Source: Patescibacteria group bacterium (GTDB lineage: Bacteria > Patescibacteriota > Patescibacteriia > UBA9570 > JAHJKD01). From it: a DNA stretch of 64,000 bases. The stretch lies in NCBI GenBank assembly GCA_018822435.1, contig JAHJKD010000050.1:1531-65530 (forward strand). Reading direction: 5' to 3'. The position numbers and the translations under genes are program-made. Below, in pieces: positions 2,054-52,984 of this stretch. Numbering within the stretch: position 1 is the first letter of the stretch; each line of letters begins with the position of its first letter. The notes below the pieces were generated by a model, which was not told the origin of the DNA, made no database searches, and saw only the letters and a program-made list of their open reading frames with translations.

Positions 2054-2086
2054 GGAGTTCGGAAAAGGAGGGGGAAACCGAACTCC
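2054..2086 (-). terminator. Hairpin terminator of the GC-rich aminotransferase gene
   Basis: Perfect 9-bp stem ggagttcgg/ccgaactcc with a 15-nt loop, immediately 3' of the minus-strand ORF that ends at 2117. Confidence 0.45.
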
Positions 2087-2116
2087 GGGTGGGAAAAGGA
2101 AGGAAGGCGCCGCACA

Positions 2117-3265
2117 TCAGATCTCCGACGGATCCGGGACATCCGTATGCCACTCCGCGGGAATCTCGAATCCAGGCAGGAGCCGTTCGACCGTAGGCAT
2201 GTCCCGCCGGACCATGGCCCAGTAGGACTCGGCTGCTTTCGCCAGGAGGGGATGGGGCTCGCCGCGCCGTGCGAACGGGGCATCGATGGGCTTGGGATTG
2301 AGGCTGCGTTCCAGCCATTCGAGGTAGGCGTCGCCCTCGCCGTCATGGAAGACTCCCAGAGGCGGGTTCTCGTTGGTGGCTCGCATCACGGCCTGTACGG
2401 GCACGAAGCCGGACCAGGATCCAGAGACCGAAAATCCCTCGGCCTCGACCAGTTCGTGGCGGCTGACAGGCTTCTCTGCCACCGTGACACCCATGTGCTC
2501 GAAGATCTTGATCATGGTGGCCCGCGTCAGCCCGGGCAGGCACCACGAGTGCAGGTCAGGCGTGACCACGGTGTTCTCGTCCTGGAAGACGAAGAACAGG
2601 TTGGATCCGGTCGTCTCAGCCAGATCGTCTCCTTCGTGCGTCATGCCCAGGACTTCGTTGCAGCCGTACCACTTGGCCACCACGCCCTTGAACTTGGCGC
2701 CCAGGGGGTAGTTGGCCGCCGACTTGATGTGCGGGTAGCCGTTGTAGGGGCTGGCCCGCCGGAACAAACGTCCCGGGAAAAGCAAGTTGATGCCGAATTC
2801 GCCCTCAGGCAGTTTGAGGTACTCAGTCAGATCACGCGTGATGATCTGCCAGTCGGCCGTGCCCGTGGCGTGCACCCCGAGCTCTTCGCCCCAGGCCCCG
2901 CCGAAGATGCGGAGGTACACGTCCTGGGCCTGAGTCAGCTCAGCTGCGTTCAAAGAGGCAATCTTGACCATGGCCGTCAGAACTTGCTCGGCCGTAGGAA
3001 TCGTCTCCCGCGGCAAGCCCAGGGCCATCATATTCCGAACCAGTCGCCGAGCGTGGTCCGGACCGCGGAAGATGCGCCGCTTGCCGTCCGCGCACATCCA
3101 GGCTCCGGCCCCGCCGAAGATGCGTGTGCCGTAGTGGCCGTCGTGCCGGTACGGGCTGTGCCCGATCCCGCCGGTCTCGCGAATCTCGCCCTGGACGATC
3201 ATGTGGGTGTGATGGTAGGAACCATCCGCACCCTCGAAACTGTAAACCAAAGGCTTGACGCCCAT
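2117..3265 (-). CDS. Class IV aminotransferase, branched-chain amino acid aminotransferase-like; GC-rich foreign-looking gene
   Basis: 382-aa ORF with blocks shared with actinobacterial IlvE (NLFFVF, VTPDLHSWCLPGLTR, KFKGVVAKW). Strongly GC-rich with G/C-ending codons. RBS ggaagga upstream. The overlapping plus-strand 447-aa ORF is an antisense artefact. Confidence 0.65.
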   Translation of the reverse strand: MGVKPLVYSFEGADGSYHHTHMIVQGEIRETGGIGHSPYRHDGHYGTRIFGGAGAWMCADGKRRIFRGPDHARRLVRNMMALGLPRETIPTAEQVLTAMVKIASLNAAELTQAQDVYLRIFGGAWGEELGVHATGTADWQIITRDLTEYLKLPEGEFGINLLFPGRLFRRASPYNGYPHIKSAANYPLGAKFKGVVAKWYGCNEVLGMTHEGDDLAETTGSNLFFVFQDENTVVTPDLHSWCLPGLTRATMIKIFEHMGVTVAEKPVSRHELVEAEGFSVSGSWSGFVPVQAVMRATNENPPLGVFHDGEGDAYLEWLERSLNPKPIDAPFARRGEPHPLLAKAAESYWAMVRRDMPTVERLLPGFEIPAEWHTDVPDPSEI

Positions 3266-3474
3266 TTTCTTTTCCTTCCGTTAATGTGAGTTGTCAATTA
3301 ACTTTCTTATAATAAAACAGACCCCTCCTTTTTAGAACTCCTTTTTGGTCTGTATTAGCTTGTTTAAATTACTGGAAATACTAAAAAAAATCAAGCTTAA
3401 GTGATTTGACATAAGCCAGGTAAAATAATAAGCTTTGGCCACCTTGACAACCTACCAAAAGGAGGGGGAAACCC

Positions 3475-4332
3475 ATGAAACTCACGACCGCACTGGTCAT
3501 CGCGTCCGCCATCACCTTCACTCCGTTTTGCTTCGCACAGATGGATGAAGGGCCCGAACCCGGGGCTGTCCGGTCACCGGGCGAGCCTGTCGACATGTGC
3601 CGCAGCCTTTATGGCTGGGTGCCCTGTTCCGAGGATATGGAGATCACTCATGTCTGTTTCGACCGGTCTTCCAGCTTCAACTGCCTTGACTGCACCATCA
3701 CCATGGCCCTGCTCGGCGTTCTCGATTCCGACCCGCAGAGCATGATCAACACGACCGCCGGCTGCCTCATGAACAACTTCACCCCGGAAGCCTGGGCCGA
3801 ACTCGAACACTGGGAGAAAGACTACACCAGCTCCCTGGGCCCGGCCTTGGCTGGCAAGGACATCGCCGACCTGCTCCAGAACAGTGTTTACATGGCCCGG
3901 TTTGCTTCCTACAATCTCATCTGCAAAGACAAGACCGAGGTGATCCCAGAATCCTTGACCGAGTACGTCACTTTCTGGCGAGAATCCTCCTGGGATGATC
4001 GCGCCCCCTTGCCGGTCATGATCGCCGAAGCTGCTTTTGAAGAGCATCTTGAAGCTCAAGCCTACCTCTTCTCCTTCAACTGCCTCGCCTTTTACCCGCG
4101 CACGCGTGGCAGCCCGCCCATCTACTTCACCCCGGAAGAAGACAGCGAAGCCGAACTTGGAGCCGCCTTGGTTGCTTTCCTTGCCCATCAAAAAATCACG
4201 GCCATCGCCGTGATCAAGGACTCGCCGGAGCAAGCTGCTCTAGAAGCCAAGGACTGGAAGGTCTGTCCTTCTGCCGCCACTGACAACTTCAACGTCGTCA
4301 TCCCCCCACCGATCGTCTACCACTTCCTCTGA
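3475..4332 (+). CDS. Secreted Cys-rich hypothetical protein (GC-rich island gene)
   Basis: 285-aa ORF. N-terminal signal peptide MKLTTALVIASAITFTPFCFA, many Cys. Strong SD aaaaggaggggga 5 nt before the ATG. GC-rich. Confidence 0.55.
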   Translation: MKLTTALVIASAITFTPFCFAQMDEGPEPGAVRSPGEPVDMCRSLYGWVPCSEDMEITHVCFDRSSSFNCLDCTITMALLGVLDSDPQSMINTTAGCLMNNFTPEAWAELEHWEKDYTSSLGPALAGKDIADLLQNSVYMARFASYNLICKDKTEVIPESLTEYVTFWRESSWDDRAPLPVMIAEAAFEEHLEAQAYLFSFNCLAFYPRTRGSPPIYFTPEEDSEAELGAALVAFLAHQKITAIAVIKDSPEQAALEAKDWKVCPSAATDNFNVVIPPPIVYHFL

Positions 4333-4353
4333 TGCCGTCAAGGCACCTCATCG

Positions 4354-4386
4354 CCTCGGCAGTCTGCTACCCGCATTCTGCCGAGG
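4354..4386 (+). terminator. Hairpin terminator of the secreted-protein gene
   Basis: Perfect 9-bp stem cctcggcag/ctgccgagg with a 15-nt loop. Same architecture as the hairpin at 2054-2086. Confidence 0.45.
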
Positions 4387-4398
4387 CCGCCCACTTCT

Positions 4399-4433
4399 TG
4401 ACTTTTAAACAAAAATATGATAAAATTATTATA
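4399..4433 (+). promoter_or_regulatory. Sigma70-like promoter (TTGACT-17-TAAAAT) upstream of ORF 4458
   Basis: ttgactt ttaaacaaaaatatga taaaat, read directly. Confidence 0.4.
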
Positions 4434-4457
4434 ATAAAAAATCATTAATATAATTTT

Positions 4458-4661
4458 ATGCCTTCAAGAGAACCAAGTTTTGATTCACAACCAAAAACAA
4501 CAATCGAACAAAAACTCGAACAAAGAACTGACATTCTTGATGATCAAGCATTAACAGAAAAATACAAAGGTGGAATCCAAGTAGATTCATATCCAGTAAA
4601 ATCATCAGCTGACGGCCAATGCATGGCCCAGGAAACCAATCTCCGACTCCCAACTGAATAA
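4458..4661 (+). CDS. Small hypothetical protein; possibly the 5' part of a frameshifted gene
   Basis: 67-aa ORF downstream of a good promoter. A +1-frame continuation (4663..5030) is open. Confidence 0.3.
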   Translation: MPSREPSFDSQPKTTIEQKLEQRTDILDDQALTEKYKGGIQVDSYPVKSSADGQCMAQETNLRLPTE

Positions 4662-4662
4662 A

Positions 4663-5030: not shown

Positions 5031-5603
5031 TTTTTTATAAGTCATCTTTTTAAGATCTTGCCACCAATCCGTGCTATTGGTGGTTTTTATTTTCTCAATC
5101 ATTTCTTTGGCAGAATCAGTCTCCACGGCTTCAGCTATTTTCACCACCCAGTCATTCATAGATTCATAGCCTTGCTCGGCAAATTCTTTCGCGGTCATGG
5201 CCATTTCCACCCAGTCGGCGTCCTTAGCAACTACTCCCTCTTTTTTGTCCCTGGAATTAAATTCTTTAAAATATTCCAATAATTTTTTCTCAATCTCTTT
5301 AGGCAAATTTTGTACTTGTTCTTCATAAGCTTTCTGCTCTGGTTCAGAATGATCCCAATATCTCGCCCCGACTTTATGCTGGTCGCCCACCCGGCACTCG
5401 CCAATATCATGAAATAAAACCATGCAAGCCGTTTTCTCCTCATCCGCCCCTTCCAGGCCGGCCATGACATAAGCGATGATCGCCGCCCGGCAGGTATGGT
5501 CGGCCAGTGAGTCAGGATCTTTCACGCCCGCCAAAATCGAGCCAGTATGCCTCTGCCTTTTCAATACGCCCATCTCATAAAAAAAATTAACGATTTTTTC
5601 CAT
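5019..5603 (-). CDS. HD-domain phosphohydrolase
   Basis: 194 aa. HD motif ...LFHDIGECRVGD... and conserved His/Asp pattern. 17-nt overlap with the upstream gene (operon). Confidence 0.75.
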   Translation of the reverse strand: MEKIVNFFYEMGVLKRQRHTGSILAGVKDPDSLADHTCRAAIIAYVMAGLEGADEEKTACMVLFHDIGECRVGDQHKVGARYWDHSEPEQKAYEEQVQNLPKEIEKKLLEYFKEFNSRDKKEGVVAKDADWVEMAMTAKEFAEQGYESMNDWVVKIAEAVETDSAKEMIEKIKTTNSTDWWQDLKKMTYKKLPV

Positions 5604-5973: not shown

Positions 5974-7508
5974 ATATTTTTTACCATATAATTATCCTCT
6001 AAATTATAACCCAATTTTCGATAATAGTCCCTTACACCTACTCCGGAGATAACCCAAAGATTGTCATGGCCAGCTTTCTTAGTCAGAGCTTCTGCTTCAG
6101 CCAATAATTTCTTGCCGAAACCAAAATGCTGGACTGCCTTTTCGCCTTTTGCCAGCTCCAGCATCTGCCCATAAGTATGAAGCTCACGAATAAAAGCTTT
6201 TTCTCCCAATCTCAATCGACAAAAAGCAAATAAATATTTTTCATCAGAAGATTCATAAGTTAAAAATATTTCTTTACCGCCTGAAGCCACATAGCCTCTT
6301 TTTACTAACTTGGCCTCACTCAAATCTACTTTAGCCTCACGCGGCTCTCTACATCTGATGCATTTGCACTCAACTCCCCCATCTTGAAGTAATTGCCTCA
6401 AATTAGACACAGTGCTTCCCGCCACGATCGACTCCTGGGGAATATCGCGAATTAATCTCGCAATCCTGACATACTCAGGCATCTCTTTCTTTACCTTTTT
6501 AAGCAATCCTACCAATTCTTCAGTAGTATATGGCTTATACTTTCCCTCTTTATACCATTTATATAATTCCGATCCTTTCGTGACTACGCACGGATAAATT
6601 TTAATCTGGTCTGGCTTAAAATCCGGATTTGTAAATAACTCCCGGAACATCTTATGGTCCTTATCCAAATCAGAGCCCGGCAGATTCGGCATCATATGAT
6701 AAGTTATTTTAAATCCGGCATCTTTTAATAATTTAGTCGCTTGAATAGTTTGCTCTACTCTATGCCCTCTCTGGTTTAGGTCTAAAATATCATCATAGAC
6801 AGTTTGCACGCCCAGCTCGACCCGAGTCGCCCCAAAATCTAACATACGCTGCACTTCTTTTTCATCTACATAATCCGGCCTGGTCTCCAGAGTTAGCCCC
6901 ACCACTCTATGTTCTGCTGTCTCATTTAGTTTCTTAGCCTCTTCCAAATCTTTAGATTCTTTTTTATTATAACCATCATAACAACGCTTAATAAAATCCT
7001 CCTGATATTCCGGCGGCAAGCAAGACCATGTTCCGCCCATCACAATCAACTCACACTTATCTGTCGGATGACCATTGTCATACAAAGCCCGCAGTCTCAT
7101 TTCCACTTGCTTATAGGGATCAAACTCACATAAAACTGCCCGCATCACCGCTGGCTCATTAGAAAGATAAGATTTAGGCATGTCTTTTTCCGTAGGGCAA
7201 TAAACACATTTTCCCGGGCAAGGATGTTCGCGAGTTAAAACAGAAATCACTGCCACACCCGATAAAGTTCGGACATCTCTTTTTCGAAGCATTCTAAAAA
7301 GCTGTTCGTCTTCTTTTATCTCCCCTTTTTTTACTAGAGATCTATATGCCTTAAGAATTTCCGCATTTGTCGCCATGCCTGTGCCATCTTTCTTGGCAAT
7401 CTCTCCTTTTATACGTCGAAGCTGGATCACGTTCTTGGGCTTTTCTTTTATGGCTAATTTTACCAATTCTTCTAGGGCTTTTTTCATAGGGTTATTATAT
7501 ATGAACAT
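5970..7508 (-). CDS. elp3: Elongator Elp3-like radical-SAM/GNAT tRNA-modification enzyme
   Basis: 512 aa. Radical-SAM Cys cluster HPCPGKCVYCP after LSGVAVISVLT, as in archaeal Elp3. C-terminal GNAT block FGFGKKLLAEAE...VISGVGVRDYYRKLGY. Confidence 0.85.
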   Translation of the reverse strand: MFIYNNPMKKALEELVKLAIKEKPKNVIQLRRIKGEIAKKDGTGMATNAEILKAYRSLVKKGEIKEDEQLFRMLRKRDVRTLSGVAVISVLTREHPCPGKCVYCPTEKDMPKSYLSNEPAVMRAVLCEFDPYKQVEMRLRALYDNGHPTDKCELIVMGGTWSCLPPEYQEDFIKRCYDGYNKKESKDLEEAKKLNETAEHRVVGLTLETRPDYVDEKEVQRMLDFGATRVELGVQTVYDDILDLNQRGHRVEQTIQATKLLKDAGFKITYHMMPNLPGSDLDKDHKMFRELFTNPDFKPDQIKIYPCVVTKGSELYKWYKEGKYKPYTTEELVGLLKKVKKEMPEYVRIARLIRDIPQESIVAGSTVSNLRQLLQDGGVECKCIRCREPREAKVDLSEAKLVKRGYVASGGKEIFLTYESSDEKYLFAFCRLRLGEKAFIRELHTYGQMLELAKGEKAVQHFGFGKKLLAEAEALTKKAGHDNLWVISGVGVRDYYRKLGYNLEDNYMVKNI

Positions 7509-14289: not shown

Positions 14290-15576
14290 TTATTTTATCT
14301 TTTTGACTTCCTTCACAAACTGTTCCCCTCTCATAAATTCATTCATGACCGGCAACCAAGTCAAGCCAGGCGATAACAATATCACATCGCCCTCTTCGGA
14401 AAGCTCCCAGGCCTTTTTTACCGCGTCCTTCATGTCCACGGCTTCCAGGCCGGCGGGCAGGTCCTTATTGGCGTTGCCCGGCAGTAAAATCAAGATCTTG
14501 GCTTTCTTGGCGATCTCCTGGCTGAACTGCTTCAGATCTAATCCCTTGGAATTGCCTCCGGAAATCAGGATAATGTCATTTTCAAACGCACTCAAAGCCG
14601 CCACCCCCGCGTCCGGGCTGGTCGCGGTCGTGTCATTATAAAATTCCCGGCCCTGGTGTTCCCGCACCAGTTCCAGGCGGTTAGGCACGCCCCGGAAATT
14701 CTCCACTACCTGGCGCGCCGCCTTTTTCGACACCTTAAATATATCCGCCACTCTCATGGCCGCGTCGGCATTGGCCAGATTATGCCTGCCTTTGATGTGC
14801 TTGGGCGTGAAATCGATCTCTGTAAAATAATAGCCATAGGCCGGCGTATGATGGATCATCTTGTTTACGACCGGATCACGCCGGTTCAGCACGACATAAT
14901 CATCTTCGGTCTGATTTTTTAAAATATTTTCTTTGTCTTTCCTATACTCCGCCATAGATCTATAAAAATTCAGGTGATCAGGCAGTAAATTTGTCATCAC
15001 GGCCACATTAAATCTTTCTTTCTTCAGTTCATGCAACTGGAATGAAGAAACTTCTAAAACCACAATATCTCCTTTTTTTATATCATCCACAAAATTCAGG
15101 GGCGAATTGCCGACATTGCCTCCGATCCAGACTTTGTTCTTAAATTTCTTCCTTAATATCTCATAAATCAAAAAAGTCGTGGTCGTCTTACCCCGCGTGC
15201 CGGTCACGCCTACGACTTTTACGTCCTTGTCTTTTATTTCATTGAAAAAGAGAGAGAGGTCATTCACGATCGGGGTGCCTTCTTTTCCGGCCACGGCCAG
15301 ATATTCCGAATCCCAATGCACGCCCGGGTTCCGCACTACCAGATCCCGGCCTTTAAAATCTTCTTTCCTGTGTTTGCCTAAGACTAGCTGGATATTTTTA
15401 AATTTTTTCAGCTGATTTATTGTGCTGGGGTTTAATTGCGACTTTTTTTTATGATCTGTCACAATAACGCGCGCGCCTTTTCGCGCCAAAAACCGGGCCG
15501 CGGAAAAACCAGAGCCTTTTTCAATGACCCCGAGCCCCATGACCGTGATTTTTTTATCTTTATATGAATCAATCAT
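14290..15576 (-). CDS. murD: UDP-N-acetylmuramoylalanine--D-glutamate ligase
   Basis: 428 aa. N-terminal Rossmann GLGVIEKGSG, P-loop GVTGTRGKTTTT. Confidence 0.85.
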   Translation of the reverse strand: MIDSYKDKKITVMGLGVIEKGSGFSAARFLARKGARVIVTDHKKKSQLNPSTINQLKKFKNIQLVLGKHRKEDFKGRDLVVRNPGVHWDSEYLAVAGKEGTPIVNDLSLFFNEIKDKDVKVVGVTGTRGKTTTTFLIYEILRKKFKNKVWIGGNVGNSPLNFVDDIKKGDIVVLEVSSFQLHELKKERFNVAVMTNLLPDHLNFYRSMAEYRKDKENILKNQTEDDYVVLNRRDPVVNKMIHHTPAYGYYFTEIDFTPKHIKGRHNLANADAAMRVADIFKVSKKAARQVVENFRGVPNRLELVREHQGREFYNDTTATSPDAGVAALSAFENDIILISGGNSKGLDLKQFSQEIAKKAKILILLPGNANKDLPAGLEAVDMKDAVKKAWELSEEGDVILLSPGLTWLPVMNEFMRGEQFVKEVKKIK

Positions 15577-16573: not shown

Positions 16574-16690
16574 AAAATAATTATACAATAAAAAATACCG
16601 TCTATCAAGCAGACTTTTTCCTTGACTATATCTCAATAAAAAGCTAAAAATACCCCACCACCCGTACCACCACCAAGGAGGAAAAAATCC

Positions 16691-16948
16691 ATGAAAGCGA
16701 GAATCATCGACCCTGGCACAAATTCTTTGGTCCTCTGGCTCATAGTCGAGGTGAATGAAGGCGAAATCGCCATCAAGCCCAGTAAAGGGGGGATCGAAGT
16801 AGCTGTGTTCGTCTCCGGCTGGTTTCCGGACACAATCATCGGGGAGACTGAGGTGCCGGAAGATTTGGTCGAGAAGGCAGTCGCCCATCTCCGGACCAAG
16901 CACGAGCTCGACCAGCTGGCCAACCAGCTCAAGGAGATCCTGCGCTGA
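16691..16948 (+). CDS. Hypothetical protein, GC-rich island gene
   Basis: 85-aa ORF. SD accaaggagg 7 nt upstream. TTGACT-17-TAAAAT promoter. Imperfect GC-rich hairpin follows the stop. Confidence 0.5.
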   Translation: MKARIIDPGTNSLVLWLIVEVNEGEIAIKPSKGGIEVAVFVSGWFPDTIIGETEVPEDLVEKAVAHLRTKHELDQLANQLKEILR

Positions 16949-17020
16949 GTGGAGGGGGCGGGCGGCGGCTCATCAAAAAGCTGCCGTCCTCCCTCCAATC
17001 TAGTAACAATCACTTCATAT

Positions 17021-17055
17021 AAAAACGGCCCGCCTATCAAGCGAATTTTTTTTAT
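17021..17055 (+). terminator. Degenerate copy of the recurrent terminator repeat
   Basis: aaaaacggcccgcctatcaagcgaatttttttt. ctatcaagc loop as in the six copies downstream. Confidence 0.4.
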
Positions 17056-17115
17056 TCTTGTAAAAAAAGGATTTTTGTAGTATAAAGGAACCACCTAAGT
17101 ATTTACTTCAAACAT

Positions 17116-17934
17116 ATGAAAAAAATATTCTTATTCCCTATTCTGGGCATTTTATTATTTACTATTAATTTCTTAGCGACTCCTTCAACCAAAGCATTTA
17201 GCACCGCCACTCATCCCATAGTTATAGATAATATATTAATGGGAGGATCGGGAAATGATGTTTGGATAGATGCTTCATATGGTAAGTATTGGGATTTAAA
17301 AGGAAAAAAATACAAGTTGTATAAAATGCGTTCTTATATTGGCAAAGGTACGGGCAGTGGAATATACCAAGGCCCTCCATCCATGACAGAAATTGTGAGA
17401 ATGAAAAATAATGGGACATATCTGAATAATTTTGTGGCCATCAGAAGCAATTGGAAATTTTTCCCTCAAAAGATAAGGAAGGGCAGTAAAAAATCTCCTA
17501 CTTATAAAAAAGTTATCAAAAAAATATTACGCAGGAATGATTTAGGCCATTTAAAGCCAAAGATCAAACAAATTTACAAAGTTGACCTGGATGGTAATGG
17601 CACCAAAGAAAAAATTATTCATGCTTCCAATATTGATTTTAATAATCCAAATTACTATCAGGAAAAAAATACTTATTCAGTCGTATTTGTAAGAAAGTTA
17701 GTAAATGGAAAAAAGAAAAATATTATTTTGAGGAAAAGCTTTTACACAGAAGACGGAGATTTTGAAGACGGCCCTACATATTCGCATCGCATCCGCGCTA
17801 TCGGCGATTTTAACGGGGATGGAAGAATGGAGGTCGTAGTTGAGACAAGATACTATGAAGGAACTGGATTTTCAATCTTTGAAGTAAAAAAGAAAAAAGC
17901 CGTGCCTGTACTCAGTAACGGCTCAGGAGCATAA
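17116..17934 (+). CDS. Secreted protein with FG-GAP/VCBS-like Ca-binding repeats
   Basis: 272 aa. Signal peptide. DLDGNGTKE and GDFNGDGRMEVVV motifs. Confidence 0.5.
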   Translation: MKKIFLFPILGILLFTINFLATPSTKAFSTATHPIVIDNILMGGSGNDVWIDASYGKYWDLKGKKYKLYKMRSYIGKGTGSGIYQGPPSMTEIVRMKNNGTYLNNFVAIRSNWKFFPQKIRKGSKKSPTYKKVIKKILRRNDLGHLKPKIKQIYKVDLDGNGTKEKIIHASNIDFNNPNYYQEKNTYSVVFVRKLVNGKKKNIILRKSFYTEDGDFEDGPTYSHRIRAIGDFNGDGRMEVVVETRYYEGTGFSIFEVKKKKAVPVLSNGSGA

Positions 17935-17942
17935 TATAAATA

Positions 17943-17972
17943 AAACGACCCGCCTTCCAAGCGGGTCTTTTC
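17943..17972 (+). terminator. Recurrent intrinsic-terminator repeat, copy 2
   Basis: aaaacgacccgccttccaagcgggtcttttctt. Confidence 0.7.
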
Positions 17973-18023
17973 TTATTTAAAAAAAATATGATATTATTAC
18001 ATTGAAAGGAATAAATTATATTT

Positions 18024-18761: not shown

Positions 18762-18770
18762 AAAAACGCC

Positions 18771-18802
18771 CGCCTATCAAGCGGGTCTTTTTTATCCCTT
18801 TA
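18771..18802 (+). terminator. Recurrent terminator repeat, copy 3
   Basis: aaaaacgcccgcctatcaagcgggtctttttt. Confidence 0.7.
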
Positions 18803-18832
18803 CATTCAGACTTTTTTTGATAAAATATCAAT

Positions 18833-19531: not shown

Positions 19532-19563
19532 AACGACCCGCCTATCAAGCGGGTCTTTTTTAA
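19531..19563 (+). terminator. Recurrent terminator repeat, copy 4
   Basis: aaacgacccgcctatcaagcgggtctttttt. Confidence 0.7.
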
Positions 19564-19614
19564 TTTTTTAACCACTTCTTCTGAACACCAAAATTTGATA
19601 TACAAAAGAAGGGG

Positions 19615-19646
19615 CGGGGGCATGGTTCTTGCGAACGCAGCCCCCG
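19615..19646 (-). terminator. Hairpin terminator of the small membrane-protein gene
   Basis: 7-bp stem cgggggc/gcccccg with a 17-nt loop, followed on the minus strand by ttctttt. Confidence 0.45.
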
Positions 19647-19677
19647 TTTGATCCCGTAAACTACCGAAGCATCCACG

Positions 19678-19923
19678 TCACTCTTCATCCTCGTCCTTCG
19701 TATCCTCCTCTTCTTTTTCCTCATTTTTTTCCTGAACAAGACGTGCGATGCTTTCAGGAATCTGACTGACTAGTAAACCTAAGAAGAAAAGAGACAGTGC
19801 TATAGCCATACAAAGCACGACAATCGCAACCTCTGCGTTCCCATTGAAAACACATATGCAAGCCAAACCAGAAGAGAGGAAAAAAGTAGCCATCCATAAA
19901 GGGAATACGATACTTTTTGTCAT
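19678..19923 (-). CDS. Small two-TM membrane protein with acidic C-terminal tail
   Basis: 81 aa. SD taggaggt 6 nt upstream. Two hydrophobic helices, tail EEKEEEDTKDEDEE. Confidence 0.5.
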   Translation of the reverse strand: MTKSIVFPLWMATFFLSSGLACICVFNGNAEVAIVVLCMAIALSLFFLGLLVSQIPESIARLVQEKNEEKEEEDTKDEDEE

Positions 19924-20082
19924 GGTAACCTCCTAATAGGTGGATGAAGTTGTTAACGGTCGCCTGTTCCGGATTCGCCGGCAACTTATTTTGCCGACTA
20001 AATCACTAGATACAGGATAGGCGACCTTACCATTTCAGCGATCCCTTGTCAATAGTCGCTCTTGAATAATTATTATCAATAA

Positions 20083-20115
20083 AAACACCCGCCTATCAAG
20101 CGGGTCTTTTCTTTA
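20083..20115 (+). terminator. Recurrent terminator repeat, copy 5
   Basis: aaaaacacccgcctatcaagcgggtcttttcttt. Confidence 0.65.
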
Positions 20116-20168
20116 ATAAAAATAATATTTCTGATATATTTAATCATATCTAGATAAATAAACATTTT

Positions 20169-20639: not shown

Positions 20640-20640
20640 A

Positions 20641-20670
20641 AACGATCCGCCTATCAAGCGGGTCTTTTTT
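20641..20670 (+). terminator. Recurrent terminator repeat, copy 6
   Basis: aacgatccgcctatcaagcgggtctttttt. Confidence 0.7.
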
Positions 20671-20696
20671 ATTTAAAGTAATTTTAGAAAAATAGT

Positions 20697-20722
20697 GGGA
20701 CTGAATGTAAGGATTCAGTCCC
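20697..20722 (-). terminator. Hairpin 3' of the GC-rich Cys-rich gene
   Basis: Perfect 10-bp stem gggactgaat/attcagtccc with a 6-nt loop. T-rich on the minus strand after the stem. Confidence 0.45.
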
Positions 20723-20757
20723 GGGGGAAACAACCGCGCCTTACCGCGGGTGCGACG

Positions 20758-21156
20758 CTAGGCCACTTCGTCGAAGTAGTCCCAGCGCGCCTCATCGATC
20801 TCCTCCACGACCGCCTCGCACATCATGTAGATCATGACGTCGCGCAGCGTGATGTGAGCGGAATGGTCGACGTTGCACTCGAAACCGCAGTAGCACTCAC
20901 AGCAAGATTCCTCGCGGACACCGACGATGCCTCTAGCGGTCTGATCCAGATCCAGCCCATCCAGCATCATGTCCTCGGTGTAGCGGAACAGGACGGCGTC
21001 GGTCATATCCGACGCGCGACCGTAAGCCGCCCGCCAGGTCGAGTCCGTCTCCTTCCACCAGTGATCCGGGCCGAAATGGTCCATGATCCGGCGAGCGAGC
21101 CGCTCGATCAGGTAGGAGGAATCATGCCGGTTACCCTTTTGTTGTACGTTCATCAC
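20758..21156 (-). CDS. Cys-rich hypothetical protein (CCECYCGFEC), GC-rich island gene
   Basis: 132-aa ORF. Nearly every codon ends in G/C (checked by hand). SD aaaggag upstream. Divergent from the MerR-GHKL gene. Confidence 0.5.
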   Translation of the reverse strand: MMNVQQKGNRHDSSYLIERLARRIMDHFGPDHWWKETDSTWRAAYGRASDMTDAVLFRYTEDMMLDGLDLDQTARGIVGVREESCCECYCGFECNVDHSAHITLRDVMIYMMCEAVVEEIDEARWDYFDEVA

Positions 21157-21279
21157 GTATCTCCTTTCAGGAGTTTTACCGCACCTGCTCCATGCAGGAC
21201 GGCGATGGCAATGCCATCATTGAGGGTCAATCTGTATATCACATTTTTTCAATTTTGTCAATAGTAATCCATAAAAATA

Positions 21280-21337: not shown

Positions 21338-21342
21338 TTATT

Positions 21343-22083: not shown

Positions 22084-22100
22084 CATCCTAATCCTATACT

Positions 22101-37554: not shown

Positions 37555-37668
37555 GAGTGTATTATATAAAACGAACTAGAATTTGAAAAGAAGGAGGGGG
37601 AGGATTTCGGGAGGGGGAGGAGGATCCGAGGGGTTATGCCGAAGCAAAACCACACGGACCTCCTTCCC

Positions 37669-37998
37669 CTATGGGAGAACAAATCGGAACAAACAAGTGT
37701 CCCCAGCCACGACCACCTTGCGGGGGTCATAACCGTCTGCCCATGAGATCCCCCGAAGGGTTTCCCACAAAAAAATATCGTCTCCCAACGTACATGCTTT
37801 CAGCATGATCATGTAGTAGGACTGTCCCACGTACACGATTTTGCCTTCTGCACGCACGCCCCCCACCAACGCTACTGTCTCCTCCGAAGGGACATCCTCC
37901 GAATACTCGAAGACCAGAACGAGCGTATCGTCCGTAGTCCTCATAGCGTCGACATTTTGGGGGGTGGAGCATTCTCCCGAAGGCTGCGTGGCCAACAT
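37669..37998 (-). CDS. Hypothetical protein, GC-rich island gene
   Basis: 109-aa ORF. SD aaaggagg 8 nt upstream of the ATG. GC-rich versus AT-rich flanks. Confidence 0.5.
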   Translation of the reverse strand: MLATQPSGECSTPQNVDAMRTTDDTLVLVFEYSEDVPSEETVALVGGVRAEGKIVYVGQSYYMIMLKACTLGDDIFLWETLRGISWADGYDPRKVVVAGDTCLFRFVLP

Positions 37999-38108
37999 CT
38001 CTCTGCCTCCTTTAAATACTCACCCCCTTGCAGGGGGCTATGCGGCTTGATTGCCGACGGTAAAACTTACAATTTTTCTTGAATTAAGTCAATATTGTTA
38101 TCTACATT

Positions 38109-38214: not shown

Positions 38215-38511
38215 ATGTTTAAAGAAGGAACAAACACTTCAACCCAACCTAGGCCTGAACCAAAAAAACAGGATAAAAAAATCAATGGCACAAGATCAGA
38301 ACAGCCTACTTCTGAAGATTTAGCTGATCTGCAATCTGCTTTTCCAGAGAGAGACTTAACCAGCCATGCTGTTGGTGGAAAGCAAGCCCAGGAAGGACTG
38401 CAACAGACTCTCCAAGAAATCAGAGCCAGCGAGGAAAGCCGAAAAGCACGATACGCTTCCCTGAAAGAAAAAATGGACAAAGAAAGAGAAGACAGAGAAA
38501 AAAGAGCTTAA
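38215..38511 (+). CDS. Charged/disordered protein sharing an N-terminal module with the next gene
   Basis: 98 aa. KKQDKKINGTRSEQPTSEDLADLQSAFP versus AKQDRKIKGVRAEQPTQADADALQAAFP in the downstream paralogue. Confidence 0.5.
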   Translation: MFKEGTNTSTQPRPEPKKQDKKINGTRSEQPTSEDLADLQSAFPERDLTSHAVGGKQAQEGLQQTLQEIRASEESRKARYASLKEKMDKEREDREKRA

Positions 38512-38529: not shown

Positions 38530-39789
38530 ATGCCTAATTTAGAAACCAGAATGGGCTCAAAGCCCGCCACACAAGAAGGTGCTAAACAAGACAGAAAAAT
38601 AAAAGGTGTAAGAGCAGAACAGCCTACTCAGGCTGATGCTGATGCATTGCAGGCTGCTTTTCCTGATAAAAAAATCAAGCAAGCCATTGCCGCTCAAGAT
38701 GCTGACCAAATTGCGGCTGTAAAAAAGAAAATGGGTGTTGATCCTAGTGTTGCGCAAAAGCGCCCTGGCGAAACAACTGGTGAATACAAAACCAGACTAT
38801 CCCGATACAATCTGGAAGAAAATTATGGCGCCCCGAAAAAACCTGTTTCTGCCGCTGCTATGAAACCTGGCGAAGTAATGGTGGCCCGCAAAGATCCAGG
38901 CCAGCCTGTCCAGCCTGTTGAGGAAGTTAAATCCAAACTAGACGACTTAATGAGTGAATACGTAAACCTTCGCACCAAGATGAAAAAACTTGAAGGCAAA
39001 GGCTTTGCTTTCTTTAAAAAAGCTCGCCTTAACCGCCTCAAACAAATGGAAGGAAATCTAAATACCCAAGTTGCCGAACTGACTCCGATTGAAAATAGAA
39101 AAGATGCTCGTGCGCTTTATGACAGAATGGACATCAATTTAGGTGACCGCATGACTGCCAATGCCCGCGCGGAAGTAGAAAAACAAAATGCCTCTTATAT
39201 GGAAGCAATTGGTCCGGCTTTAGAAGCCCGGCGTGTAGCTGAAGCGGAAAAAAGCCTTGGCGAAGCAGCTGCAGCCAGAGAAGAGGAAATGGCGGCTTAT
39301 CGTCCCATTACTGACGTTGAGGAAAATATTACTGAAAAACAGCCAGATGTAACTGAACAATTAGAATTAATTGAAGAAAAACCTGATGTAAGTGAAGATC
39401 TTGAATTAGTTGATGAAACAAAACCGACAAGAAAAGATATGGAAGGAGCAATTCAAGCCAGAAAAATTTTAGTTGAAGATATGGGTGAAATTGAGGCTGG
39501 CGACGACGAACCAACTGATGAAGAAATTGCTGCTCAAATGGAAGAAATTAATCTACAATTAGCCGAAGAAGAAAAAGCTGCCAGAATGGCAAAATATCCT
39601 AAGGCTATTAAGCTAAAAGAGGGTACTCAGCCTGAACCATATGCGGGGGGCCCGACTCTAACGGAAAGCTCCGCTCCAAAATCTGCCACGCAAGTGCCAG
39701 AAAAGGATCTGCCTGAATTAAAACTTGATGATGAAGTTGAAGAAATCGAACTGGATGAAGATGATAAAGACCAGGCTGCGTCAGCTTAA
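38530..39789 (+). CDS. Charged coiled-coil/low-complexity protein with conserved N-terminal module (paralogue of 38215)
   Basis: 419 aa. Shared N-terminal roughly 40-aa motif. Acidic C-terminal half. Confidence 0.55.
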   Translation: MPNLETRMGSKPATQEGAKQDRKIKGVRAEQPTQADADALQAAFPDKKIKQAIAAQDADQIAAVKKKMGVDPSVAQKRPGETTGEYKTRLSRYNLEENYGAPKKPVSAAAMKPGEVMVARKDPGQPVQPVEEVKSKLDDLMSEYVNLRTKMKKLEGKGFAFFKKARLNRLKQMEGNLNTQVAELTPIENRKDARALYDRMDINLGDRMTANARAEVEKQNASYMEAIGPALEARRVAEAEKSLGEAAAAREEEMAAYRPITDVEENITEKQPDVTEQLELIEEKPDVSEDLELVDETKPTRKDMEGAIQARKILVEDMGEIEAGDDEPTDEEIAAQMEEINLQLAEEEKAARMAKYPKAIKLKEGTQPEPYAGGPTLTESSAPKSATQVPEKDLPELKLDDEVEEIELDEDDKDQAASA

Positions 39790-46465: not shown

Positions 46466-47281
46466 TTATGACAATTTCTTATTCTGAGGTTTTTTAAGAT
46501 AATTATTTTTAATTGAAATCTTTTTTCCCGTACGTTTCTCAATGTCCTTACGGGTAGATCCGGCTACTTCACCGCCTTCTTTAGCATCTTTTTTTAATGG
46601 TTTGAAAGATTTGGACTCTTTGTCTTGAGTTAATCTGGTTGTTGTCGCTTCACCCAGCATTGTCAGGATCAATTCCAAATCATCCATATGATCCCTTAGA
46701 TTCTCACGCTGTAAATTCTTAAACTTTTTATACTCCTCCGGCGACATGTCAAAAGTGGCCTTAGAAATTTCTGAAGTCAAAATGGCGTATTCCCTCGCTT
46801 GTTTTAGCCCTCTTTTACTCCACTCATCAGTCAGCTCTTCCCGCACAGCAATGCCCCTCATCCTCTTCTCAATCCAGGAGTCACTATATCCCTTGGCTTT
46901 ATATAGCGCCTTTGTCCTTTTTGTTGCCAATTCCGGATCTTCAATTTCTTTGATCCTTTCATAGCCAACTCTGGCTAGCCAACGCTTGAAAGGTTCGGCT
47001 TTAGGCGAAGGGATTGATTGGATAATACGAAATATCCCCTCTGTATTGGCGCAATTCATCTCTTGTTTGCCGCCTTTAGTGCCTATTTCAAGGGTGTGTA
47101 CAATTTGTACCCACCCCTTAGCTATTTCTGCGTCTCTCTGCTTCATCCGTTGTATATATTGTTTTGCGTCCCGAGAATCAATTAATGCTAAAACAACATC
47201 TTCAACAACAAACCACCATTCATTATCATGAATAGTCCTTCTCACTTTTTTCCCTTTAAAAATCGCAATTTTATTATTCAT
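46466..47281 (-). CDS. Bro-N domain protein (DinD / phage antirepressor-like)
   Basis: 271 aa. N-terminus IAIFKGKKVRRTIHDNEWWFVVEDVVLALIDS fits Bro-N. Basic C-terminus. Confidence 0.55.
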   Translation of the reverse strand: MNNKIAIFKGKKVRRTIHDNEWWFVVEDVVLALIDSRDAKQYIQRMKQRDAEIAKGWVQIVHTLEIGTKGGKQEMNCANTEGIFRIIQSIPSPKAEPFKRWLARVGYERIKEIEDPELATKRTKALYKAKGYSDSWIEKRMRGIAVREELTDEWSKRGLKQAREYAILTSEISKATFDMSPEEYKKFKNLQRENLRDHMDDLELILTMLGEATTTRLTQDKESKSFKPLKKDAKEGGEVAGSTRKDIEKRTGKKISIKNNYLKKPQNKKLS

Positions 47282-47637
47282 CTAATTTTATTTTAAATGA
47301 TTATATTAATTATAACAAAAATAAATAAAAACACCCGGATTTTTTTGGGTGTTCTGAATTTAACATATAAATTTTTATATCTCAAATTTAACACAAAATT
47401 TGAAATATGGCAAATCCTTATTTCAAGTAAAATTTAATTAACTATTATATAAAATAGACAAAATTTAAACTGCCACCGAGAACTTCCTTTGTGTATGACA
47501 GTCGCTGCTGTCGCTGAGGGAGGCGTGGACACCGTCATCAGGAAGATGATGTTCGGAAATGGGTTGTGGTGTCTCTGAGGGCAAGTACGGAGCAGACTTC
47601 TTCCTCCAGCTGGCGAAGAAGTAGAAAGGAGGAGGCC

Positions 47638-47736
47638 ATGTCTCATTCACGAGCCGGGCCAACAGACTCGCCAGCGGAGGCCTCAAGCCAAGAATCCCTG
47701 GTGAGTCTCCGTAAAATTATTACATTTTTAAAATAA
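47638..47736 (+). CDS. Candidate 32-aa peptide gene with strong SD at end of GC-rich segment
   Basis: aaaggaggaggcc ATG ... TAA followed by the terminator at 47743. Neither overlapping minus-strand ORF has an RBS. Confidence 0.2.
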   Translation: MSHSRAGPTDSPAEASSQESLVSLRKIITFLK

Positions 47737-47742
47737 TAAAAA

Positions 47743-47770: not shown

Positions 47771-47815
47771 GTTGGTTGCGGGGGGCGGATTCGAACCGCC
47801 GACCTGATGGTTATG
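47765..47815 (-). repeat. Partial tRNA-Met copy (anticodon loop to 3' end, with encoded CCA) = distal att direct repeat
   Basis: 42 nt (47765-47806) identical to 49829-49870 inside the intact tRNA-Met. The 5' half is absent. Confidence 0.75.
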
Positions 47816-47994
47816 AAGATTGGGACCCCTCATCAACCAATTTGGCTAACCTAAGTCATTTATAGCTGAGCTCAGCTAAAATTTACCCACCTATCATTTT
47901 CTCAAGCATTCCCAAACTTGATCAAATGTACTCAATCATCATCACTTCGTGGGCAACTGGTGGGCAACGCTTTTTAAGAAAGTAATTATTAATT

Positions 47995-48296: not shown

Positions 48297-48839
48297 ATGA
48301 GTGTAAAATTTTTAAAGAGCTTTGATGATTATTGCGAAGAGCACACATCAAAGGAAGATGTAAACGAAGCAATTAAAAATCCAGATAAAGTGACCAGAGA
48401 AGATATGGGTAATCAGCAATCCCTGTTCTTTTTGAAACATTTCTCTGAAGGCGAAAATGAATATTACATTCTTGCCTGCGCTACCAAAAAGGAAGATGAA
48501 ACTAGTGTATATGCCGCTTTTTATCTGCCACCGGAATTTGATAGTCAACTATCTAAAATGGATGCAATAGATGTAATGGTGGCTGTGGCCGAGGCATTTG
48601 GTTTAGAGGCAACTAGCGGTTCAGCCAAATCTAAGTTTATTCATCATCAGACCTATTGGACTGACAACGATAATTCTATACCTTTTATAGAAGGATTTCA
48701 GCCAGGTGATAAAAAAATGATATGTCAAACGTGGTTTAAAAAAGAGCCCCACGGAAGCAAAGTTCGTATCGAAATTCATACTGCTTTTTGCATCAATATG
48801 GATATTTATTACGAATGGCTACATTCTATTAAAAGATAA
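48297..48839 (+). CDS. Hypothetical protein (element cargo)
   Basis: 180-aa ORF. No motif recognised. Confidence 0.45.
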   Translation: MSVKFLKSFDDYCEEHTSKEDVNEAIKNPDKVTREDMGNQQSLFFLKHFSEGENEYYILACATKKEDETSVYAAFYLPPEFDSQLSKMDAIDVMVAVAEAFGLEATSGSAKSKFIHHQTYWTDNDNSIPFIEGFQPGDKKMICQTWFKKEPHGSKVRIEIHTAFCINMDIYYEWLHSIKR

Positions 48840-48849: not shown

Positions 48850-49701
48850 TCATGCTAAAATATATTTCTTTATATAAACATCTAACTCTATCCAATTAAC
48901 CAAGGGCCTATTAAATTTTTGTATAATTGGTTCGACTTCCTTCGCTATAATATTATTTTTAATCAAGAAATACATTTGTGAGAATTTTCCTCTGTTCTCA
49001 TTATCTTGTTCTTCCCAACTTATTATCACTCCAAGGATATTCTTGTTTGAAGATAAAAATAGCTGGACTGGTATAGACATCTCTGCCAAGCCTGGTTTTA
49101 GAATCCAGTGCTGAGGTACTCTAAGAAATATAATTCCTAAGTTTTCTTTTCGAATTTGTTCAGCTGCTTTCTCACAAGGTTTTACTATTGATTCTTCAGA
49201 ATAGGGGGTAGTTTCAGATTTATTTTTTACCTCACATCGTATTTCAGGAGTAGTCTTTAAAAGTATATCAAAATTTTTATCTTTATCCTTATCTTTATCA
49301 GCGATAACAAACTCAAATGGTAAATTTCTTCTGAAGAAATGAGCACCACCACCCAATTCAGCAAATCGCGAAGTTAGATTTCCTCTTTTTATATGCTTAA
49401 CAACAGAGTCTATCCCCTCAACATGCTGCATGTTGTAAACCATTTCAGCTAAATCAGTAACCCGATTTTGATGGACAAATCCCATTTTCTTTGTGAGTAG
49501 AAACACCCTAGCTTCTTCTGTTTGTTGTGGATGCCGGCTATGTTGCATAAAAAGCGTTTGATTGGCCCATTCGTTTCTTATCATTCTTCTTATCAATTCT
49601 ATTGAGACGGCGCTCCTATAGAAATCAAACTTTTCTTTTGGGAGCTTGTTTTTTATTGTTTGGCATAATTTTTTTATTTCTGCCTCACTGACTTTTTCCA
49701 T
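48850..49701 (-). CDS. Hypothetical protein (element cargo)
   Basis: 283-aa ORF. No motif recognised. Confidence 0.45.
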   Translation of the reverse strand: MEKVSEAEIKKLCQTIKNKLPKEKFDFYRSAVSIELIRRMIRNEWANQTLFMQHSRHPQQTEEARVFLLTKKMGFVHQNRVTDLAEMVYNMQHVEGIDSVVKHIKRGNLTSRFAELGGGAHFFRRNLPFEFVIADKDKDKDKNFDILLKTTPEIRCEVKNKSETTPYSEESIVKPCEKAAEQIRKENLGIIFLRVPQHWILKPGLAEMSIPVQLFLSSNKNILGVIISWEEQDNENRGKFSQMYFLIKNNIIAKEVEPIIQKFNRPLVNWIELDVYIKKYILA

Positions 49702-49828: not shown

Positions 49829-49870
49829 GTTGCGGGGGGCGGATTCGAACCGCCGACCTGATGGTTATGA
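49829..49870 (-). repeat. Proximal att direct repeat (inside tRNA-Met)
   Basis: gttgcggggggcggattcgaaccgccgacctgatggttatga identical to 47765-47806. Confidence 0.75.
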
Positions 49871-49901
49871 GCCACCCGAGCTGCCACTGCTCCACCCCGC
49901 G
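49830..49901 (-). tRNA. tRNA-Met (anticodon CAT), initiator-like (C1:A72 mismatch)
   Basis: CGCGGGGUGGAGCAG...GGCUCAUAACC...GGUUCGAAUCCGCCCCCCGCAA. Close to E. coli tRNA-fMet. CCA not encoded. Confidence 0.8.
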
Positions 49902-52214: not shown

Positions 52215-52422
52215 GATCACGAAAATTCGAAAAAACGAATTTCTCGAAGGTATTAACTTCATTTATATTGTAATGGCTGATGACTATTTTGTTGGGAATT
52301 TATATTACAGAAATCTTTTCGGCTTATTAAATAATTTCACTTTAAAATTAGTCCAAAGGCGCTTATTAATTTATAAGAGTAATTACCTTCGAGTTTTTCG
52401 TAACTTCATGCTTTCGTGATCC
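52211..52422. repeat. Inverted-repeat (MITE-like) intergenic element 1, rich in cacgaaa/tttcgtg words
   Basis: About 50-bp terminal IRs: ggatcacgaaaattcgaaaaaacgaatttctcgaaggta... and the reverse complement ...taccttcgagtttttcgtaacttcatgctttcgtgatcc. Confidence 0.6.
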
Positions 52423-52526
52423 AAATTTCCCCTAAACGAAATAGAGCCCGTGACATGCACAGAATAGCGTCATAAAATTCACGATAATTTCAGAATAAAT
52501 AATTTGCTTATTTTCTCTGAAACGAT

Positions 52527-52563
52527 GGGATGAAAGACGGACGCTGGGTCCGTCTTTCATCCC
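52527..52563 (-). terminator. 16-bp perfect-stem hairpin 3' of the GC-rich gene 52592..52888
   Basis: gggatgaaagacggac gctgg gtccgtctttcatccc. Confidence 0.4.
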
Positions 52564-52591
52564 AAACAGGAAACCGCTCTTCCGGCAAGCG

Positions 52592-52888
52592 TCAGAGCCT
52601 CTCGATGATCCCGCCGGGTCCATGGGGGCCGTAGCCGTGGCCGTCCAATGACCCGATCAAGGCCCGCAGCCTGTCCGCCTTCGCGACTTTGCTGCGGACA
52701 ATGCTCATGATCCCTTCCCAGACGGCCTGGCGCTCGTCGTCTTCCAGAGCCATGAAAACTTCATAACTGCGGGCAGTGAAGCTTTCATCCGCCATCAGGG
52801 AAACCGGATCATCAGAACTGGAATCAATTGACTCACACACCTGCTCGAAAAAACTCGCCAAAATCTCACGATTATCAGATTTAGCCAA
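52592..52888 (-). CDS. Hypothetical protein, GC-rich island gene (TTG start)
   Basis: 98-aa ORF. SD aaaggagg 9 nt before the TTG. GC-rich 3' two-thirds. Lies between IR element 1 and the groES promoter. Confidence 0.45.
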   Translation of the reverse strand: MAKSDNREILASFFEQVCESIDSSSDDPVSLMADESFTARSYEVFMALEDDERQAVWEGIMSIVRSKVAKADRLRALIGSLDGHGYGPHGPGGIIERL

Positions 52889-52984
52889 TTAGGTTGCCTC
52901 CTTTCTTCCTGTTGAAGACTTAGCTTACCAAGAAAGGCAAAAAAAAGTCAATAAATCCCTTAAAATAAGGGGAATTTTACCCTC

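Follow-up and report, generated by a model that had tools for sequence, protein, structure and literature searches.

The DNA examined here is a 64,000-nt window (positions 1,531 to 65,530 of contig JAHJKD010000050.1, assembly GCA_018822435.1) from a Patescibacteria group bacterium, with 41.4% GC overall, in which short GC-rich genes led by Shine-Dalgarno (SD) sequences are scattered among AT-rich genes that mostly lack them. The question that this locus raises is what kind of genes these islands are and how their composition arose. The first-pass annotation of the DNA counted at least seven islands and proposed recent acquisition from a high-GC donor, a family of mini-cassettes, or chimeric assembly. 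We suggest, as the best reading, that the islands are cassettes resembling phage morons: autonomous, persistent and separately translated.

GC-rich islands were called in 200-nt windows with a threshold of the mean plus two standard deviations. The scan recovered 2008-4421, 16705-17053, 20677-21233, 37587-38064, 47472-47718 and 52486-52850, which accounts for every proposed island but the one at 19615-20045, where the coding sequence (CDS) of an 81-aa membrane protein is host-like (GC 0.41 and 0.40 at third codon positions, GC3) and only the untranslated regions (UTRs) are GC-rich (3′UTR GC 0.60). The first island, described earlier as a single block at 2054-4386, is GC-rich as stated but consists of two units, encoding an aminotransferase and a 285-aa protein, with about 150 nt of AT-rich promoter DNA between them. 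GC3 was 0.64-0.81 in the six GC-rich open reading frames (ORFs) compared with 0.20-0.57 in the other window genes (median about 0.38), and the order GC3>GC1>GC2 is that of genuine coding sequence, which bears out the high-GC coding pattern that had been read from the codons. The preferred codons were CTG, CGC, GCC and ATC, four-fold degenerate sites were A 0.08, C 0.46, G 0.31 and T 0.15, and GC1 and GC2 were also raised, with lysine low. At 47465-47740, where a 32-aa peptide had been considered, GC1, GC2 and GC3 were about equal in all six frames, with no coding periodicity. Both strands of this segment fold with z about −3.2 and it matched no Rfam family; it is probably non-coding and possibly represents a non-coding RNA or a decayed unit.

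The same genes stand apart in their translation signals. SD strength was taken as the duplex energy of the upstream region with ACCUCCUUU, and the median was −11.45 kcal/mol for the six GC-rich genes versus +0.3 kcal/mol for 45 others (Mann-Whitney p = 2.4e-4), in agreement with the reported contrast between SD-bearing islands and an SD-less remainder. Just two AT-type genes had a strong SD, at 19678-19923 (the 81-aa gene) and 55857-56186. One of the SDs read earlier, aaaaggagggggaaacc at 2066, has no ATG after it and forms the loop of the aminotransferase 3′ hairpin, while the 285-aa gene has the copy at 3459 as its SD. In 11 of the 51 genes scored, among them trpS and the gene at 60671, a TATAAT-like box ends 6-11 nt ahead of the start codon, so that these genes look leaderless. 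The gene at 55346 likewise has such a box just before its start codon, confirming the leaderless look noticed for all three.

Read in gene orientation, a unit opens with an AT-rich promoter, and the leader with its strong SD, the ORF and the closing 3′ hairpin are all GC-rich (Table 1). Promoters with −35 and −10 boxes, together with 3′ hairpins, were predicted from sequence for six of the seven units. These promoters are of the sigma-70 type (TTGACW-N17-TAnnnT), often with TAAGNT as the −10 box. The window has five matches to the motif TTGACW-N16-18-TAAGNT where 0.17 would be expected; four of these lie directly upstream of island genes, and promoters of this type also precede the orthologue of the 285-aa gene in one related locus (L091) and aminotransferase homologues in two others (L178 and L179). 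Host promoters have the same −35 box and spacing but a −10 box of the TAWAAT type; since −35 and spacing are shared, TAAGNT was dropped as the mark of a separate sigma factor. Mean GC along the units was 0.29 in the promoter, 0.52 in the 5′UTR, 0.54 in the CDS, 0.62 in the 3′UTR and 0.28 in the next 60 nt, a profile in which the compositional domain matches the predicted transcript. We conclude that the GC-rich tract coincides with the transcript as predicted, and not with an indel boundary, where the transcription starts of all units are promoter predictions and not measured RNA ends.

Table 1. Predicted units of the window and their parts (SD, Shine-Dalgarno; CDS, coding sequence).
Feature	Position	Strand	Details
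Aminotransferase (AT4) cassette	2051..3355	-	CDS 2117-3265, 382 aa, GC 0.64, GC3 0.81
Aminotransferase 3′ hairpin	2054-2090	-	anti-SD-like loop UUUCCCCCUCCUUUU
Aminotransferase upstream hairpin and T-run	3316-3350	-	
Aminotransferase inverted-repeat arms, 20 nt	2054-2073 and 3322-3341		18/20 match
285-aa secreted Cys-rich protein cassette	3406..4387	+	CDS 3475-4332, GC3 0.74
285-aa promoter	3406-3434	+	TTGACA-N17-TAAGCT
285-aa SD	3459-3475	+	AAAAGGAGGGGGAAACC
285-aa 3′ hairpin	4353-4387	+	
85-aa protein cassette	16622..16997	+	CDS 16691-16948, GC3 0.73
85-aa −35 box	16622	+	TTGACT, then C-rich leader and SD AAGGAGG, duplex −11.2 kcal/mol
85-aa 3′ hairpin	16952-16997	+	GC-rich
81-aa membrane protein unit	19615..20052	-	CDS 19678-19923, SD AGGAGG
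81-aa promoter	20052-20024	-	TTGACA-N17-TAAGGT
81-aa 3′ hairpin	19615-19646	-	
131-aa acidic Cys/His-rich protein cassette	20697..21261	-	CDS 20758-21153, GC3 0.80
131-aa promoter	21261-21256 and 21238-21233	-	TTGACA-N17-TATACA
131-aa terminator hairpin	20697-20722	-	
109-aa acidic protein cassette	37587..38092	-	CDS 37669-37998, GC3 0.64-0.65
109-aa promoter	38092-38064	-	TTGACT-N17-TAAGTT
109-aa leader		-	CCCCCUgcaAGGGGG hairpin; SD AAAGGAGG, duplex −11.7 kcal/mol
109-aa 3′ region	37587-37640	-	C/U-rich, CCUCC repeats
GC-rich non-periodic segment	47465..47740		GC 0.55, adjoins partial tRNA-Met copy
98-aa acidic protein cassette, upstream of groES	52526..52951	-	CDS 52592-52888 (TTG start), GC3 0.66
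98-aa promoter	52951-52922	-	TTGACT-N18-TAAGCT
98-aa SD		-	AAAGGAGG, duplex −11.9 kcal/mol
98-aa 3′ hairpin	52526-52564	-	perfect, 17 bp

The composition of the cassettes is shared by their homologues in relatives. A trpS-based genome scan led to one sister species (L096, also L004; GCA_043821615.1), the nearest species representative found (TrpS 83% and glyA product 89% identical in amino acids). Its aminotransferase gene occupies the same glyA-adjacent site and has a GC3 of 0.89 among genes of 0.26-0.40, with a product only 32% identical to that of the window (dN 0.69); the core proteins encoded in the syntenic block around it reach 48-89% identity. The upstream hairpin with its T-run and the downstream hairpin are recognisably homologous to those of the window, and the inverted repeats of the unit are conserved. 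L096 also holds two more SD-led, GC-rich small genes (GC3 0.72 and 0.84); it has no DNA match to window 3475-4332 and carries a kinase gene upstream of the aminotransferase gene. Synteny with the window is lost beyond trpS-murD, and no empty sites for the 16-21 kb islands were found in it. The converse arrangement was seen in L091, whose glyA is 84% identical to that of the window in protein and 77% in DNA: the 285-aa orthologue (88% amino acid identity, dN/dS 0.10) lies in the same glyA-adjacent place behind the same promoter with a GC3 of 0.71 versus 0.21 for glyA of L091, and exactly window 2051-3355, the aminotransferase unit, is missing, so that glyA abuts the promoter of the 285-aa gene. 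Among 1.84 billion representatives the top match of the aminotransferase was 41% identical and just eight matches reached E<1e-30, and the two named relatives are both Patescibacteria. Further homologues, 33-35% identical, have GC3 of 0.92 in L178 and 0.85 in L179; both adjoin a CDP-alcohol phosphatidyltransferase gene that is AT-rich and of the leaderless type, with nearby AT-type genes of 0.24-0.41 and other GC-rich genes close by.

For the 131-aa family, a search of 5.8 billion clusters gave three homologues, 52-66% identical, with conserved Cys/His columns and GC3 of 0.71 in L088 (neighbour 0.28), 0.74 in L089 (neighbour 0.38) and 0.84 in L090. The AT-rich promoter is common to the window and L088, and the 80-nt leader to the window, L088 and L090. 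Every homologue context that could be read includes AT-rich leaderless-type genes, the L179 copy lying within a GC-rich cluster. Under a strict filter applied to 45 AT-rich loci (652 kb), SD-led GC-rich ORFs were found only in the window's genome and in L095-97. The lineage is barely sampled: when JGI metagenomes were searched with GroEL for close relatives, identity reached 69% at best, and the search yielded no extra syntenic genomes.

Divergence of the cassettes was then compared with that of adjacent genes. Synonymous divergence was expressed as an excess, namely how much more often a residue shared by two proteins has the same codon than under a null in which codons are permuted within the gene, a measure chosen because strong codon bias lowers the saturation level of synonymous differences; for the same reason NG86 dS was dropped as proof of five-fold slower synonymous change. 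The excess was 0.46 for the 285-aa gene between the window and L091 and 0.09 for the adjacent glyA, while for the aminotransferase gene between the window and L096 it was 0.03 and for glyA 0.20. For the 131-aa gene it was 0.42 against L090 and 0.09 against L088 or L089. Cassette divergence is thus decoupled from that of the flanks in both directions, and exchange of units in a pool fits this better than strict vertical descent. Additionally, the pairs that are saturated at synonymous sites (excess 0.03-0.09) are all still GC3-rich, and GC3 is 0.71-0.92 in synonymous-saturated homologues with the exception of one copy, in L092, at 0.28. Saturation together with high GC3 disfavours simple amelioration, under which GC3 should have neared the host value. 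Symmetric counts of changes between G/C and A/T (S<->W) were not retained as proof of a stationary state, the counts being unpolarised. We conclude that the island units are real, protein-coding and under purifying selection, and that gain, loss or exchange between related genomes affects them as whole blocks.

Assembly or binning artefact, with foreign GC-rich reads stitched into AT-rich contigs, has a negligible probability. The Logan assembly of SRR2544004, in which the junctions of the 85-aa unit are the same, and a second metagenome-assembled genome (MAG), GCA_018825215.1, match the window through the junctions at 100% identity, and equivalent GC-rich/AT-rich mosaics with conserved promoter-to-gene junctions recur in other, unrelated datasets (L088, L091, L096, L178 and L179). 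Two other assemblies of the same population (L086 and L087) do end contigs beside the first island, at about 1626 and 4441-4446, but the 4441 break falls within an AT-rich palindrome (4420-4459), and contig ends there could reflect a coverage or repeat break or population heterogeneity. Recent and repeated horizontal acquisition from a high-GC, SD-using donor, such as the host of an episymbiont, would make the islands unameliorated foreign DNA, and would account for the codon usage of a high-GC bacterium with raised GC1 and GC2 and low lysine, for the strong SDs, for presence and absence between relatives, and for a 285-aa gene that is less diverged at synonymous sites than glyA. We nevertheless consider it unlikely. 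No homologue in a GC-rich or mobile-element context was found by protein searches of about 15 billion proteins; profile scans of the 131-aa family in JGI metagenomes and IMG/VR, a comparison of the 285-aa protein with IMG/VR, and tblastn against 50,697 GenBank phage and 72,556 PLSDB plasmid records gave no match to an island protein. The closest aminotransferase is as distant as 41% and its named relatives are Patescibacteria, and even pairs that have reached synonymous saturation keep a GC3 of 0.8-0.9. Shared positions, hairpins and AT-rich promoters and leaders would require many independent recent imports into the same sites, which is less parsimonious. The first-pass annotation had set same-lineage best matches, coupled with similar codon usage, against its picture of foreign islands; the matches do lie within the lineage, while the codon usage is still unlike that of the host.

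The remaining alternatives explain parts of the evidence. GC-biased gene conversion, in which the cassettes are hotspots of recombination with DNA taken up by natural transformation and G/C-biased repair drives both GC and fast protein change, would suit the decoupled divergence of cassettes and flanks, which indicates exchange, a GC content raised in the UTRs as well as at each of the three codon positions, and the rapid change of the aminotransferase relative to its neighbours. It is improbable in our view, because the GC tracts end sharply at the predicted transcription start and terminator, a stretch of AT-rich promoter DNA persists where two GC-rich genes lie side by side, the CDS of the 81-aa gene lacks the high GC, and the effect is very large: to our knowledge, a GC3 shift from 0.3 to 0.9 is far beyond what is reported for biased conversion in bacteria. 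Selfish mobile mini-cassettes, bounded by inverted repeats and inserting into intergenic DNA with a passenger gene, are suggested by the clean indel at 2051-3355 and by its terminal inverted repeats, which are conserved in L096; none of 500 shuffles equalled the window repeat, and 11 of 500 were as good as the L096 repeat (15/15 with one gap). This explanation is decidedly unlikely, as the 2051/3355 junction shows no target-site duplication, neither a transposase nor an integrase was found within the units or next to them, no unit is present in several copies and the other six units have no terminal repeat, and the repeats could equally be 5′-3′ RNA pairing or two hairpins of common origin. 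Of the earlier idea of a mini-cassette family, what stands is the anatomy, in which each unit is discrete, brings its own promoter, SD and hairpin, and is present or absent between relatives. What does not stand is descent as copies of one element, and only one unit has terminal inverted repeats. An exact 17-nt repeat (AAAAGGAGGGGGAAACC at 2066-2082 and 3459-3475) was also considered as a target-site duplication and rejected, as the L091 junction puts the indel ends at 2051 and 3355. Lastly, the cassettes might be tuned for a translation system other than the bacterium's default, a very remote prospect. In its radical form, the bacterium, a presumed episymbiont, would pass mRNA or DNA of the cassettes to its GC-rich, SD-using host in the manner of T-DNA genes, and in a milder form the cell itself would have an orthogonal channel in which some of its ribosomes, those whose anti-SD is free, translate the cassettes. 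Delivery would explain why only the transcribed part is GC-rich, the combination of canonical promoters, strong SDs and high-GC codons, the fast-evolving small secreted or acidic ORFans, and persistence under selection.

We favour, at about an even chance, that the islands are autonomous single-gene transcription units and form a long-standing second gene class in a small Patescibacteria clade. With the same roughly balanced confidence, this class would be set apart from the other genes by its composition as well as by its signals for translation. Under this reading, a fixation bias acting on the transcribed region would keep the cassettes GC-rich, and they would not be decaying imports. The likeliest cause of such a bias would be selection on a property of the mRNA, be it stability, structure or decoding, to which the exchange of cassettes in a common pool possibly adds. 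The bulk of the mRNAs would be leaderless or SD-less and A/U-rich, whereas a structured GC-rich message may initiate through SD pairing only; SD-only initiation would mean that the class uses a separate translation channel, which could be regulated on its own, for example by leaders that occlude the SD.

Several observations weigh against this interpretation. The transcript boundaries, and hence the equation of GC tract and transcript, depend on promoter prediction. The 81-aa gene shares the promoter, SD and hairpins of the class and yet has an AT-rich CDS. Persistence is documented by three families and a handful of short contigs. The higher synonymous similarity of the 285-aa gene relative to glyA also fits later horizontal spread, and the unpolarised S<->W counts (29 versus 23) fit a stationary state or parallel decay alike. 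L179 is mostly GC-rich (five of six genes), which makes the polarity arguable. In L092, a Patescibacteria genome of 34% GC, the aminotransferase homologue is AT-rich although SD-led, so that high GC is not family-wide. Recurrent import from an unsampled GC-rich reservoir is also conceivable. In L092 itself, the aminotransferase homologue and two tiny neighbours (755-943, 5295-5456 and 6001-7158) have long purine-rich GGAGG leaders that the surrounding genes lack, which indicates that a split between SD-led and SD-less genes exists there without GC-richness.

The units share features with several known systems. A moron has its own promoter and terminator, a deviant GC content, and is present or absent between relatives (PMC3594210). 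The cassettes match this as single genes with their own predicted promoter and terminator, with GC unlike that of their neighbours and with presence and absence in syntenic relatives. They differ in lying between chromosomal housekeeping genes (glyA, trpS, groES and a helicase gene) and not in a prophage, in differing from the host in translation start, and in an odd composition that persists across saturating divergence and is not simply a mark of recent transfer; no link to phages emerged from the tblastn search or from IMG/VR. Like integron cassettes they are small, mostly single-gene accessory units with an imperfect end hairpin and block exchange. Unlike those promoterless ORFs with attC, they carry their own promoters, have no recognised attC-type site and are scattered over 50 kb; no integrase turned up in the subset of window ORFs whose proteins were scanned. 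The 3′ hairpins differ between units and no common core site was seen, although no formal attC model was run. Classical genomic islands also show atypical GC and codon usage, accessory or ORFan genes and a patchy distribution, but no donor was found here and the GC-rich units are not bordered by a mobility gene, a tRNA or direct repeats, orthologues are unameliorated, and the composition changes within the exchanged unit, where transcription is predicted to start. A MITE-like transposon with terminal inverted repeats is likewise a poor match, with such repeats at the aminotransferase unit only, no duplication, and every unit single-copy.

Some genes of largely SD-less bacteria retain an SD, as in the autoregulation of rpsU in Bacteroidetes. 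The cassettes resemble these in being a minority with strong SDs in a genome of SD-less bulk translation, which would allow separately controllable initiation, but the SD class here is accessory, GC-rich and cassette-like and does not serve ribosomal-protein feedback. Agrobacterium T-DNA genes carry expression signals tuned to the recipient cell. The promoter, translation signals and composition of the cassettes would similarly suit a cell other than the carrier; this resemblance is just a lead, as transfer machinery, border repeats and evidence of transfer are lacking. A literature search returned no description of scattered GC-rich, SD-led cassettes in candidate phyla radiation (CPR) bacteria and nothing relevant on SD and leaderless translation in them.

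The products of the islands are mostly small acidic, Cys-rich, secreted or membrane ORFans, together with one divergent class IV aminotransferase. The latter matched Pfam Aminotran_4 (E = 1.5e-19, 71.2 bits versus a cut-off of 28.5) and fell far under all NCBIfam equivalog cut-offs (99 versus 279 bits). All six proteins of the GC-rich genes are acidic (pI 4.2-4.9), to which the low lysine of GC-rich coding sequence may contribute. The small proteins reached no Pfam, NCBIfam, PHROGs or PADLOC family above threshold, the sole PHROGs matches being weak ones of the 81-aa membrane protein, and the predicted structure of the 285-aa protein (pLDDT 33) was too low in confidence for use.

Some leaders are structured in prediction. 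That of the 131-aa gene, about 80 nt, forms four hairpins (fold z = −4.0): in hairpin 3 CUCCU would pair with the SD AGGAG, and hairpin 4 places the AUG in its loop. L088 and L090 keep the fold, with no double compensatory changes among only three sequences. The leader of the 81-aa gene is 94 nt long (fold z = −2.3). When the island leaders and the window were compared with Rfam, two tRNAs alone reached the gathering score, and an E-value scan of the leaders gave nothing meaningful at E<=1 beyond terminator-like noise; a known structured RNA was rejected as an explanation of the islands, no Rfam family other than the two tRNAs having been found. The complement of the 17-nt repeat at 2066-2082, in the minus-strand mRNA, is the loop of the aminotransferase 3′ hairpin. 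Its full complementarity to the SD region of the divergent 285-aa mRNA suggests antisense or kissing-loop control. Several further island 3′UTRs have CCUCC-type tracts that resemble an anti-SD.

Other features lie in or near the islands. Upstream of glyA, 45 nt (2006-2050) are 100% identical to L091 in surrounding DNA of about 77% identity and contain the palindrome TGATAAT-N10-ATTATCA, which overlaps the predicted glyA promoter and is probably an operator; the block was rejected as an att site, being a glyA promoter/operator palindrome that is unique in the window. In L096, long GC-rich CT/GA-tract inverted repeats (28 nt, 79% complementary) lie between the aminotransferase gene and glyA (6540-6670), with none in the window. 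Moderately GC-rich stretches (0.54-0.56) also occur inside ordinary host genes, at 14421-14849 (murD), 5329-5581, 25896-26108, 27005-27300 and 29434-29661; murD has a GC3 of 0.57, and in L004 a GC-rich stretch (14327-14813) lies at and just past the murD 3′ end. A 34-nt bidirectional terminator with a conserved loop, AAAACGNCCCGCCTATCAAGCGGGTCTTTTTT, has eight copies in 16588-22493 and others at 47736 and 56204. It follows almost every gene of the 16.5-22.5 kb accessory region, AT-rich or GC-rich, so that the region resembles a row of single-gene units, each closed by a terminator, and among 179 loci the AAAACGNCCCGCCTATCAAGCGGGTCTTTTTT core was found only in copies of the window's own region.

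Part of tRNA-Met, its 3′ half, recurs as an exact 42-nt direct repeat (47775-47816 and 49829-49870; the tRNA-Met lies at 49829-49901 on the minus strand), and the two copies bracket about 2 kb with two ORFan genes (48297-48839 and 48850-49701) that have no Pfam matches. This looks like the signature of a small element integrated at tRNA-Met, with no integrase present. The 180-aa gene of the interval has a TTGACA-N16-TAAGAT promoter like those of the island genes, and a gene with a Bro-N domain (46466-47281) lies just outside. Elsewhere, gene 23447-24718 contains seven copies of a 102-nt periodic repeat (23786-24661, 60-73% identical) typical of TPR-like repeat proteins, and the adjacent genes 38215-38511 and 38530-39789 share an 83-nt N-terminal segment (38266-38348 and 38584-38666, 71% alike), which indicates a local partial duplication.

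Atypical composition is routinely taken as a timestamp of recent horizontal transfer, and these cassettes, in an AT-rich and reduced genome, appear to break that equation. If this is true, they would show that two classes of codon usage, divided along transcript boundaries, can be stable in a bacterium, and a mechanism would be needed, whether selection at the mRNA level, biased conversion or a hidden reservoir. Composition-based filters for horizontal transfer and contamination would wrongly strip the cassette genes from such MAGs. The cassettes would also offer a handle on the coexistence of SD-dependent and SD-independent initiation in CPR bacteria, and their fast-evolving secreted or acidic ORFans would be candidates for roles in host interaction or anti-defence.

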